Source: Escherichia coli | GTDB taxonomy: Bacteria; Pseudomonadota; Gammaproteobacteria; Enterobacterales; Enterobacteriaceae | Strand: one strand, 5' to 3' | NCBI RefSeq assembly: GCF_011045215.1 | Contig: NZ_CP049201.1 | DNA: 64,000 nucleotides | In this document: positions 37,892 through 41,245 of the stretch, in pieces | How positions within the stretch are numbered: position 1 is the first letter of the stretch | Layout of the letters: the number at the start of each line of letters is the position of its first letter | Translations under genes and position numbers: made by a program | Notes under the pieces: generated by a model | Databases searched by the model: none | The model's input: only the letters and a program-made list of their open reading frames with translations | What the model was told of the DNA's origin: nothing

Positions 37892-38932
37892 ATGAGCGAC
37901 AACATCCGTGTTGGGTTGATTGGGTATGGTTATGCGAGCAAAACCTTCCATGCGCCCCTGATTGCGGGCACGCCCGGGCTGGAACTGGCGGTTATCTCCA
38001 GCAGTGATGAAACAAAAGTAAAAGCCGACTGGCCAACGGTTACGGTTGTCTCTGAGCCGAAGCATCTGTTTAACGATCCCAACATAGACCTGATTGTCAT
38101 TCCTACACCCAACGATACCCATTTCCCGTTAGCCAAAGCGGCGCTTAAGGCGGGTAAACATGTGGTCGTTGATAAACCCTTTACCGTGACACTGTCACAA
38201 GCGCGAGAGCTGGATGCGCTGGCAAAAAGCCTGGGGCGTGTGCTGTCTGTATTCCATAACCGTCGTTGGGATAGCGATTTCTTGACGCTAAAAGGTTTGC
38301 TAGCGGAAGGCGTGCTGGGTGAAGTTGCTTACTTTGAGTCTCATTTTGACCGCTTCCGTCCGCAGGTGCGCGATCGTTGGCGTGAACAGGGCGGCCCAGG
38401 CAGCGGTATCTGGTACGATTTAGCACCACATCTTCTTGATCAGGCTATTACATTATTTGGTTTACCGGTCAGCATGACGGTGGACTTGGCACAGTTACGG
38501 CCTGGAGCGCAGTCGACCGATTATTTCCACGCCATCTTGTCCTATCCACAGCGGCGAGTCATTTTACACGGTACCATGCTGGCAGCCGCTGAGTCAGCAC
38601 GGTATATCGTGCATGGATCCCGAGGCAGTTATGTGAAATATGGCCTCGATCCACAGGAAGAACGTCTGAAAAATGGCGAGCGTCTGCCGCAGGAAGACTG
38701 GGGCTACGATATGCGTGATGGCGTACTTACCCGCGTGGAAGGTGAGGAACGTGTCGAAGAAACGCTGTTGACGGTGCCTGGGAATTATCCGGCTTACTAT
38801 GCGGCGATTCGTGATGCGTTAAATGGCGATGGTGAAAATCCGGTTCCGGCAAGCCAGGCAATCCAGGTAATGGAGTTGATTGAGCTGGGCATCGAATCCG
38901 CCAAACATCGCGCGACTTTGTGCCTTGCATGA
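37892..38932 (+). CDS. ydgJ: Gfo/Idh/MocA-family oxidoreductase YdgJ
   Basis: 346-aa frame from ATG at 37892 (MSDNIRVGLIGYGYASKTFHAPL), Rossmann motif. Confidence 0.9.
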   Translation: MSDNIRVGLIGYGYASKTFHAPLIAGTPGLELAVISSSDETKVKADWPTVTVVSEPKHLFNDPNIDLIVIPTPNDTHFPLAKAALKAGKHVVVDKPFTVTLSQARELDALAKSLGRVLSVFHNRRWDSDFLTLKGLLAEGVLGEVAYFESHFDRFRPQVRDRWREQGGPGSGIWYDLAPHLLDQAITLFGLPVSMTVDLAQLRPGAQSTDYFHAILSYPQRRVILHGTMLAAAESARYIVHGSRGSYVKYGLDPQEERLKNGERLPQEDWGYDMRDGVLTRVEGEERVEETLLTVPGNYPAYYAAIRDALNGDGENPVPASQAIQVMELIELGIESAKHRATLCLA

Positions 38933-38966
38933 AAAATGGATGGTGCAATTTGCACCATCCATTTTT
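38931..38966. terminator. bidirectional terminator between convergent ydgJ and add
   Basis: AAAAA-ATGGATGGTGC-AATTT-GCACCATCCAT-TTTTT, 11-bp stem flanked by A5 and T5. Confidence 0.75.
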
Positions 38967-38967
38967 G

Positions 38968-39969
38968 TTACTTCGCTGCGGCTTTTTCTCGCAGTGCGCG
39001 TTTTTCCTCAGCGCTGAGGAAAGCCATTTCCAGACCATTAATCTGTGCCTGGCGGATTTGCTCGCGGGATAACCCAGCAGCTGGCGCGGCAACGTTATAT
39101 TCGTGAATGATATCCACTCCCTGTACGCCGGGATCGTCAGTGTTAATGCTGGCACGAATGCCATGATCAAGGAACGTTTTCAGCGGATGTGCAGCCAGCT
39201 CAGCCACGGTGCTGGTCTGAATATTGGAGGTCAGACAGGATTCAATACCAATTTGTTGCTCGGCGAGAAAATCCATCAGCGCCCGATCTTCAATGGCTTT
39301 TACGCCATGTCCAATACGCTCCGCACCCAGTTCACGAATCGCCTGCCAGATGCTTTCCGGCCCGGCAGCTTCGCCTGCATGGACGGTAATATGCCAGCCC
39401 GCATCACGCGCGCGGTTGAAGTGGGAAAGGAACAGACTTCCCGGGAAACCAAGTTCATCACCGGCTAAATCAAGTGCGGTAATCTGGTCACGGTGGGCTA
39501 AAAAGGCTTCCAGCTCTTGCTGACAGGCGGCTTCGCCGAAGGTCCGGCTCATAATGCCGATAAGCTTCGCCTGCACACCAAAGGTGCGGCAACCTTCACG
39601 TACGCCATCGATCACCGCTTCGACAACACCCGCTACAGGCAGCTTATGTGCCATTGCCATGTAGCCTGGTGAAAAACGCAGCTCGACATAGTGCAGGCCG
39701 TTACGGGCTGCATCTTCAATGTTTTCAAATGCCACGCGGCGGCAGGCATCAAGAGAGGCGAGAACTTTAACACCCCAGTCAAGTTTGGTCAGAAAGCTCA
39801 CCAGATCGGGTTCGTTGGCAATGACCTGAACGTGGGGAATCAGTGTTTCCAGGGATTGTGCAGGAAGCGAGATATTATACTGGCGGCCAAGTTCAAGAAT
39901 GGTCTGGGGACGAATGTTACCATCAAGGTGGCGATGGATATCAGTTAATGGCAGGGTGGTATCAATCAT
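38968..39969 (-). CDS. add: adenosine deaminase
   Basis: 333-aa [31 protein letters not shown]. Confidence 0.96.
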
Positions 39970-40037
39970 GGTCGCACTCTTTTTCTGGATATAAAAGTGC
40001 GCACCATTATAAAAACAAAGCAGGGTAAAAATCCACG

Positions 40038-40067
40038 ATTGCGCAACAATTTTTTACGTTGCGCAAT
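40038..40067 (-). terminator. inverted repeat downstream of malY (candidate terminator; overlaps add upstream region)
   Basis: ATTGCGCAAC-N10-GTTGCGCAAT perfect 10-bp arms. Confidence 0.4.
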
Positions 40068-40072
40068 TGGGG

Positions 40073-41245
40073 TTAGCGAACAGCGCGGATGGCGTTAATT
40101 AATCCAGCCACACCTTTTTCCAGTTTCGAACGTGGGCAGCCGGCATTGAGACGGACAAAACCACGACCTTCTTCACCGTAGGTATACCCCGGCATGATCG
40201 CGACCTTTTCTTGCTCGATAAGCGCTTTTTGCAACGCGTTGTCGTCAATATTCAATGGACGTAGATCAAGCCAGGCCAGATAAGTGGATTGCGGGATCTG
40301 CCAGTTGAGTTCAGGAAACGCGGCGTTCATTTTATCTGCGATATACGTCAGGTTATCTTTCAGATAGACGCGTAAGGCATCCAGCCACGGCGCGCCTTGC
40401 TGATAGGCGGCGATATGAGCAGTTAACGCCAGTACCGAAGGGGAAGAAAGCCCATCACGGCCTTTCAGTGCCGATAAATAGGCATCGCGGCTACTGCTAT
40501 TTTCTATAATCCCGTAAGCACCGGTCAGGGCGGGAATATTGAAACTTTTCGATCCCGACGTTAGCAACGCCCAGTCTCCGCGAGCCACATTACTCCAGGG
40601 AATATGCGGCTGCTCGCCCCAAACCATATCCATATGGATTTCATCGGAAATAACCCGCACACCATGACGCTCGCACAGGTCAGCCATGATCTCCAGCTCA
40701 TCGCACGTCCACACTTTCCCGGTAGGATTCTGTGGGCTACACAGGAGCATAATTTTACATTCTGGTTTCGCCAACACGGCTTCCAGCTTGCCCATATCGC
40801 AAAACCAGCCGTCAGCCTGCTTCTCTAAAGCAACGGGCATTACTGTGCGCTGGTTACCTTCAATGGCCTTGTAAAATGCGTCATAGGCGGGCGTGTGGAT
40901 CACCACGCCTTCACCTGTTTCAGACCACTGACGAATCAGTTCTGAAACCATATAGATGACAGAAGGGCCATACACCACCGTCTGCGTATCAATTGCGGTG
41001 TAATGCTGGGTGGAAAACCAGTGGGCAATAGCCGCGAGAAATTCATCGTTTTTCCAGCGGCTGTAGCCAAATACGCCGTGCATCAGGCGCTGATTCAGCG
41101 CCTCGATAATGCAGGGGGCAGTGGCAAAATCCATGTCTGAAATCGTGAACGGTAACAGGTCAGCAGTGCCGAAACGGTCAGCGACATAATCCCACTGTGT
41201 ACACCATGTGCCATGACGATCCACGACCTTTGAAAAATCGAACAT
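40073..41245 (-). CDS. malY: PLP-dependent cystathionine beta-lyase / Mal regulon modulator MalY
   Basis: 390-aa ORF matching MalY. Confidence 0.94.
   Translation of the reverse strand: MFDFSKVVDRHGTWCTQWDYVADRFGTADLLPFTISDMDFATAPCIIEALNQRLMHGVFGYSRWKNDEFLAAIAHWFSTQHYTAIDTQTVVYGPSVIYMVSELIRQWSETGEGVVIHTPAYDAFYKAIEGNQRTVMPVALEKQADGWFCDMGKLEAVLAKPECKIMLLCSPQNPTGKVWTCDELEIMADLCERHGVRVISDEIHMDMVWGEQPHIPWSNVARGDWALLTSGSKSFNIPALTGAYGIIENSSSRDAYLSALKGRDGLSSPSVLALTAHIAAYQQGAPWLDALRVYLKDNLTYIADKMNAAFPELNWQIPQSTYLAWLDLRPLNIDDNALQKALIEQEKVAIMPGYTYGEEGRGFVRLNAGCPRSKLEKGVAGLINAIRAVR

Follow-up and report, generated by a model that had tools for sequence, protein, structure and literature searches.

Tandem operator or activator sites at sigma-70 promoters with a poor -35 hexamer lie near -41.5 and -61.5, the class II and class I positions, and lambda cI at OR2 is centred near -42 of PRM. 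Adenine induces the add gene of Escherichia coli 17.6-fold, and a ChIP-chip study concluded that PurR does not regulate add directly (PMC3159470), which makes a missing regulator of add plausible. A literature search turned up no publication on a malX/malY terminator or on the add promoter as such.

We analyzed the spacer between malY and add in an E. coli sequence of 64,000 nucleotides, which we call the window. The two genes, identified as open reading frames (ORFs) and named from the E. coli annotation, are both on the minus strand (malY, 41245..40073; add, 39969..38968, with its ATG at 39969) and are separated by 103 bp. An earlier note on this DNA had reported a perfect 10-bp inverted repeat, ATTGCGCAAC-N10-GTTGCGCAAT, at 40038-40067, and the letters of the window match it exactly, with the plus strand reading ATTGCGCAAC AATTTTTTAC GTTGCGCAAT. 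Its distances, 6 nt past the malY stop and about 70 to 100 nt before add, were also accurate, as CCCCA separates the TAA from the repeat and 68 to 98 nt separate the repeat from the ATG. The features that we refer to below are as follows.

40073..40075, minus strand: malY stop codon TAA (from the ORF and the sequence).
40033..40072, minus strand: extended imperfect hairpin, in which CCCCA...CGTGG is added to the perfect stem (15-nt arms, 87% complementary; based on minimum-energy structures and covariation).
40038..40067, minus strand: perfect inverted repeat (10-bp arms, 10-nt loop), the core of the predicted RNA hairpin in the malXY transcript (based on minimum free energy and shuffles).
40059..40066, no strand assigned: distal TTGCGCAA palindrome, at -66 to -59 relative to the add start site and centred at -62.5; invariant in 44 of 44 sequences.
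40039..40046, no strand assigned: proximal TTGCGCAA palindrome, at -46 to -39 relative to the add start site and centred at -42.5; invariant in 44 of 44 sequences.
40027..40031, minus strand: run of five T (U in the RNA), 3' of the hairpin, at -31 to -27 in the spacer of the add promoter.
40030..40035, minus strand: weak -35-like hexamer TGGATT, 18 bp upstream of the -10 hexamer (read from the sequence).
40006..40011, minus strand: perfect -10 hexamer TATAAT, -11 to -6, 5 nt upstream of the start site; nearly invariant in alignment A1.
40000, minus strand: add transcription start site, a G (PMC3415461 supplement).

The arms are longer in K-12, where they form 11 bp (ATTGCGCAACG/CGTTGCGCAAT), and in the window their complementarity runs on imperfectly to 15 nt each (40033-40047 with 40058-40072, 87%). 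The window has 30 overlapping perfect 10-bp inverted repeats with loops of 3 to 20 nt, at about 16 sites, compared with a mean of 1.4 in dinucleotide shuffles of the same sequence. As a class, such repeats are therefore nonrandom, and most of them resemble terminators. A chance palindrome with no function is accordingly hardly credible here: the small size of the element is the sole point in its favour, few such repeats arise in shuffled sequence, and the conservation across genera with covariation that we describe below effectively refutes it. A 501-bp query centred on the element found a single place per genome, between annotated malY and add, in 5,422 of 5,426 complete E. coli genomes, so the element does not have the many copies per genome of a REP- or BIME-like dispersed repeat. 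There was no second copy of the octamer pair described below within the 64-kb window beyond chance, and an Rfam scan of positions 39000 to 41000 gave nothing credible.

The earlier note had not remarked that each arm carries one copy of TTGCGCAA, an octamer that is its own reverse complement. Because of this self-complementarity, the element can equally be described as an 8-bp palindrome repeated directly, the second copy starting 20 bp after the first. The remaining four copies of TTGCGCAA in the window are all within long ORFs. A different self-complementary octamer, such as TTCCGGAA, in both arms would leave both the hairpin and the symmetry in place.

We sorted 80 add loci, one genome per species, by the region upstream of add, and we added the window and K-12 to the counts. 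Two perfect octamers were present in 49 sequences, which included the window, K-12, and three Pseudescherichia-group loci and which came from Escherichia, many Citrobacter, Enterobacter, Lelliottia, Leclercia, Pluralibacter, Pseudenterobacter, Superficieibacter, Phytobacter massiliensis, and the Pseudescherichia group. One octamer was present in 12 loci, and 21 loci had no octamer and a different upstream cassette, among them Salmonella arizonae and diarizonae, Klebsiella, Raoultella, Kluyvera, some Citrobacter, and some Buttiauxella. The octamers were separated by 12 nt in all but one of the 49 two-octamer sequences; the exception, L004, had 13 nt. Among 44 distinct two-octamer sequences from about ten genera, all 16 octamer columns were invariant, compared with 1 of the 28 other columns, a phylogenetic footprint in which the octamers are conserved above their surroundings, with the caveat that these sequences are related by descent and the counts exceed the number of independent events.

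This pattern bears on the view that the element is a terminator only and that TTGCGCAA is invariant through limited divergence or a structural preference. Such an explanation would cover the hairpin, the U-run, the placement 5 nt past the stop codon, and the covariation. Terminator stems usually diverge through compensatory substitutions, as the flanks do here, yet the 16 octamer columns are fixed while 27 of the 28 others vary. Loci with a single octamer are a further difficulty, since one copy beside a separate canonical terminator is unable to form the hairpin. Buttiauxella, Siccibacter, Cedecea, and Dryocola have their own canonical terminator behind malY (for example, GGGGAG-AAAA-CTCCCC-TTTTT), yet they keep one perfect octamer at the add promoter. 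The retained copy is the proximal one in some lineages and the distal one in others; the proximal octamer is the sole copy, beside separate terminators, in Siccibacter, several Buttiauxella, Pluralibacter gergoviae, and Entomohabitans. The locus labelled C. freundii M-21 has a terminator after malY and then an octamer pair with one mismatch. The pair is also kept where malY is a remnant: members of the Pseudescherichia vulneris group retain no more of malY than its final codons, and their octamer pair is still perfect. In L053, the upstream ORFs that were called are oriented away from add, and the pair is perfect all the same. We therefore regard a terminator without a DNA site as unlikely. 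The frozen octamers and the single copies beside separate terminators point to a constraint on a DNA site apart from the hairpin, and it is very likely that the octamers are under sequence-specific constraint.

The C. gillenii locus (L007) differs from these. Its pair is still perfect after an insertion of about 460 bp that places it some 500 bp away from the start of add, and a role limited to -42 and -62 does not explain this. Here the pair is directly behind malY and forms a perfect 12-bp stem with a T-run touching the stem.

The comparison also indicated that Enterobacteriaceae have two alternative add promoter cassettes with a common -10 hexamer and leader, as seen 30 to 100 nt upstream of add (L005, L007, L009, L016, L018, L019, L045, L066, L068, L079, and others). 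Type A is the octamer pair directly behind malY, and type B has a conserved ...AGAGGATTAT..TCTGTTGTATAAT block without octamers. The two types have a mosaic distribution, even inside Citrobacter and Buttiauxella. The insertion of about 460 bp in C. gillenii is what brought type B there; it carries a small zinc-ribbon-like ORF and lies downstream of the pair, which was retained.

Sequence identity allowed us to place the published add start site in the window; Kim et al. (2012; PMC3415461, supplementary file 2) list it at 1700226 (U00096.2) with 165 reads, a 31-nt 5' untranslated region, and the promoter sequence ATCGTTGCGCAATCGTGGATTTTTACCCTGCTTTGTTTTTATAATGGTGCG. The octamer centres are at -42.5 and -62.5 from this mapped start, beside the weak -35-like hexamer and the perfect -10 hexamer. 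In most other genera, the -35-like hexamer is TAGCTT, with the T-G positions conserved in alignment A1. A consensus scan of the site detected no sigma-70 promoter with two good hexamers, and we found no match for the add start site in Cappable-seq data. Octamers placed near a promoter that lacks a good -35 hexamer have the geometry typical of regulator sites. The earlier note had suggested a dimeric regulator site for add, and a site of this kind is favoured by octamers that do not vary, that survive singly, and that are placed at -42.5 and -62.5 of a mapped promoter. The form of the site has to be revised, from one 30-bp dyad for one dimer to two separate 8-bp palindromes two helical turns apart, an arrangement that would suit two dimers or a tetramer. 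Among genera, 24 to 27 bp separate the proximal octamer from the -10 hexamer, which is loose for a strictly positioned (class II) activator. We lean slightly to an activator; a repressor would tolerate the variation of 24 to 27 bp more easily.

The add leader has a structure of its own. The mRNA opens with GCACUUUU, which pairs with AGAGUGC just before the ATG (39973-40000, minus strand); this stretch includes a Shine-Dalgarno-like GAG, and the leader folds with a minimum free energy of -8.2 kcal/mol (z, -3.9). Nearly all of 64 distinct add leaders, including those of species with the other promoter type, carry GCACT and GAGTGC unchanged, and one divergent leader (L063) has GATCT/GGATC, which are still complementary. 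This hairpin could be a 5'-terminal stabiliser, a hairpin for translational control, or even a route of adenine control. It matched no Rfam family.

On the malY strand, the element forms a stable stem-loop 5 nt past the TAA, as expected of an intrinsic terminator. The window RNA folds with a minimum free energy of -19 kcal/mol (z, -2.7) and the K-12 RNA with -20.1 kcal/mol (z, -4.8). Overall, the RNAs fold at -19 to -26 kcal/mol; among the eight orthologues tested, four had z scores between -4.8 and -6.1, and the remaining four between -1.2 and -3.2. The stem is 10 bp and perfect in the window (11 pairs with one G-U), 11 bp in K-12, and about 14 to 15 pairs with the imperfect extension. The five U residues begin 6 nt beyond the perfect stem and abut the stem only with the imperfect extension; the site was listed by a simple terminator scan. 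In the minimum-energy structures, the stem is carried through a 2-nt bulge to abut A-UUUUU. The T-run, which the earlier note had called weak, is thus less weak than it appears because the stem extends imperfectly up to it; the perfect stem is 5 nt off the T-run in Escherichia.

The alignment showed compensatory changes in the flanking and inner-stem pairs and none in the eight octamer pairs, which were constant throughout. Immediately outside the octamers, 17 sequences have a U-A pair, 12 have G-C, and 8 have A-U; the inner spacer pairs switch between G-C and A-U. The covariation score was 0.224, compared with 0.104 in column shuffles (0 of 500 reached 0.224) and 0.03 to 0.11 when the partners were slid, figures that are inflated by the same relatedness of the sequences. 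Three pair types spread by clade would be hard to get without selection for pairing. The length of the T-run tracked the hairpin: a run of 4 to 6 follows it at each of the 46 loci that carry it after an intact malY; the single-octamer loci, which either possess a separate terminator or lack malY upstream, have 3 to 5 (mostly 3); and the lineage with the malY remnant has 3. We consider the hairpin to be probably under selection. The suggestion in the earlier note that the repeat could be the malY terminator gains from the stem being kept by compensatory changes outside the octamers and from the T-run that accompanies the hairpin, and the role itself stands as a prediction.

These data also bear on the view that the element is a regulator site only, with a hairpin potential that is a by-product of two identical palindromes and with malXY transcription ending via Rho or by read-through. 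The invariance of the octamers, their persistence as single copies, and their placement at -42.5 and -62.5 agree with it, and so does a U-tract that is short and offset from the perfect stem. We also found no malY 3' end in the Term-seq supplement of PMC7815308, which is in keeping with this view; malXY is poorly expressed, so the missing end is uninformative. Two identical palindromes leave the compensatory changes in the flanks and inner spacer unexplained, as well as the longer T-run exactly where the hairpin follows an intact malY. Moreover, the C. gillenii pair, cut off from add by the insertion, has its T-run abutting a perfect 12-bp stem. A regulator site without a terminator is therefore doubtful in our view.

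The start site table of Kim et al. (2012; PMC3415461, supplementary file 2) also lists a start inside malX, at 1698864, 117 nt upstream of malY, with 17 reads. malY may thus own an internal promoter outside MalI/CRP control, and such transcripts would meet the hairpin too.

We favour a dual use of the element, as an intrinsic terminator of malXY and as paired sites for a putative regulator of add, and we put the probability that both roles hold jointly at about 0.5. For RNA polymerase coming from malXY, the arms would pair into a hairpin of 11 to 14 bp (11 bp and perfect in K-12) followed by A-UUUUU. We infer that this hairpin would terminate malXY transcription and would shield add from read-through controlled by MalI and CRP, with the malXY transcript ending about 25 to 30 nt upstream of the add start site. 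As DNA, each arm would present a complete palindrome, TTGCGCAA, two helical turns from the other, at -42.5 and -62.5 of the add promoter, and the octamers may bind two dimers or one tetramer of the putative regulator, which could activate or repress add. Against the dual use stands the perfect stem 5 nt from the U-run in Escherichia, a gap bridged by the imperfect extension only.

It is possible, and we propose it tentatively, that TTGCGCAA-N12-TTGCGCAA is the site of a regulator new to add, maybe the missing factor behind the long-known induction of adenosine deaminase by adenine and hypoxanthine, and that this DNA site is shared with the terminating hairpin. The octamer matched none of the known regulators that we compared with it (RbsR, PurR, MalI, AllR, and PunR). 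Among these, RbsR alone has been published as a direct regulator of add, and PMC8376909, citing Shimada et al. (2013), describes it as a direct activator. In addition, in our own reading, the K-12 arm with the adjoining loop base resembles a LacI-family half-site followed by a central CG (GCGCAAC-G). The element does not have the form of an RbsR operator, a palindrome of 16 to 20 bp like TCAGCGAAACGTTTCGCTGA with a central CG, which we verified in the K-12 rbsD leader. The operator core of rbsD, AGCGAAACGTTTCGCT, reaches at best 10 of 16 in the spacer, as it does in 12% of shuffles. The CG beside the proximal octamer is lost in the window (TTG versus TCG), and the bases adjoining the octamers vary between genera. 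Knock-down of rbsR left add promoter activity unchanged in three PPTP-seq conditions (PMC10505187 supplement). We consider it very unlikely that the repeat is an RbsR site.

The other regulators were rejected on separate grounds. PurR as the binder was rejected on the ChIP-chip conclusion (PMC3159470). The 23-bp motif of PunR (YdhB), TsttwTCAAwAwwwTTGaaGGCA, is unrelated to the octamer, and a punR deletion is reported to have changed only punC (PMC8376909). The MalI operators of the malI-malX spacer, GATAAAACGTTTTAYC, differ from the octamer. An Ada box (AAT-N6-GCAA) fits Escherichia and Citrobacter by accident and fails in Enterobacter, in our own reading. In one of three PPTP-seq conditions, add promoter activity rose when allR was knocked down (PMC10505187 supplement); the E. 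coli spacer has no AllR-like sequence, and we keep AllR as a weak lead at most. In the PPTP-seq source table, add was no outlier among the first 47 regulators listed.

The malI-malX spacer of K-12 (L081, 5205-5305) carries two MalI operators, GATAAAACGTTTTACC and GATAAAACGTTTTATC; its equivalent in the window is upstream of malX, and among loci long enough to include the malX promoter, the proximal operator is kept from genus to genus. This spacer also holds two copies of the octamer with one mismatch. We rejected these near-octamers of the malX promoter, TTGCGTAA and TCGCGCAA, as further sites because they are confined to Escherichia, and we take them to be chance matches.

Literature matches showed that TTGCGCAA is identical to the octamer bound as a bZIP site by eukaryotic C/EBP. 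To our knowledge, bZIP proteins are not expected in Enterobacteriaceae, and the likeness is a coincidence of sequence only. A search of metagenomes for the exact pattern, with add loci filtered out, gave no second enterobacterial locus with the octamer pair among the 120 matches listed, which were environmental chance matches, one Enterobacter-type add locus (L090), and an unrelated dnaN locus (L163). One metagenome contig (Ga0181559_10007997, 9.8 kb; L189) has 35 copies of TTTGCGCAAA, many of them in arrays 19 to 21 bp apart, which is the period of the add pair. Its poorly defined ORFs, with a weak match to a Ulp1 protease, suggest a eukaryotic or viral origin. This array is probably unrelated to Enterobacteria, and we read it as a case in which the palindrome may serve elsewhere as a periodic protein-binding array.

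If the dual use is true, one 30-bp sequence is read twice, as DNA and as RNA, and the element is a compact case in which an RNA structure and a DNA motif constrain one and the same sequence. The findings on PurR, PunR, and RbsR leave the 17.6-fold adenine induction of add unaccounted for, and the conserved palindrome pair is a concrete bait for the responsible protein. In engineering that deletes or recycles predicted terminators, taking out the "malY terminator" would cost add the upstream half of its promoter. Each role is of a known, ordinary kind, and the wider interest is only in the binding protein and the link to adenine induction; the rest is a routine piece of bacterial gene regulation.

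Among known systems, the nearest in place is the intrinsic terminator between the convergent add and ydgJ genes, 1 kb away, a bidirectional textbook terminator at 38932-38966 that begins 1 nt past the add stop codon and consists of AAAAA, a perfect 12-bp stem (TGGATGGTGCA...), and TTTTT. Like it, the malY hairpin is a stem-loop directly past a stop codon and is followed by a T-run, and as in intrinsic terminators of E. coli in general, the stem is upheld by compensatory substitutions. The add/ydgJ terminator is canonical, with A5 and with T5 abutting its stem, whereas the perfect malY stem is 5 nt from the T-run in Escherichia. Unlike the add/ydgJ terminator, the malY hairpin has 8 of its 10 stem pairs frozen in sequence, and the whole element is inside the promoter of the next gene. 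The operators of the LacI family (RbsR, PurR, CytR, and MalI) are, like the octamers, palindromes with a central CG step; the purine and nucleoside regulators of this family belong to the same metabolic area as add, and malI is in the same cluster. LacI-family sites are 14 to 18 bp, compared with the 8 bp conserved at add, and the operators that we tested do not match. Compared with promoters that have tandem activator or operator sites, the add sites are only 8 bp, have no conserved flanks, and are shorter than typical sites of helix-turn-helix dimers, and their distance to the -10 hexamer drifts by up to 3 bp between genera. The layout is the same in both, with two dyad sites about 20 bp apart on the same face of the helix, the proximal one abutting a weak -35 hexamer, and a perfect -10 hexamer downstream.
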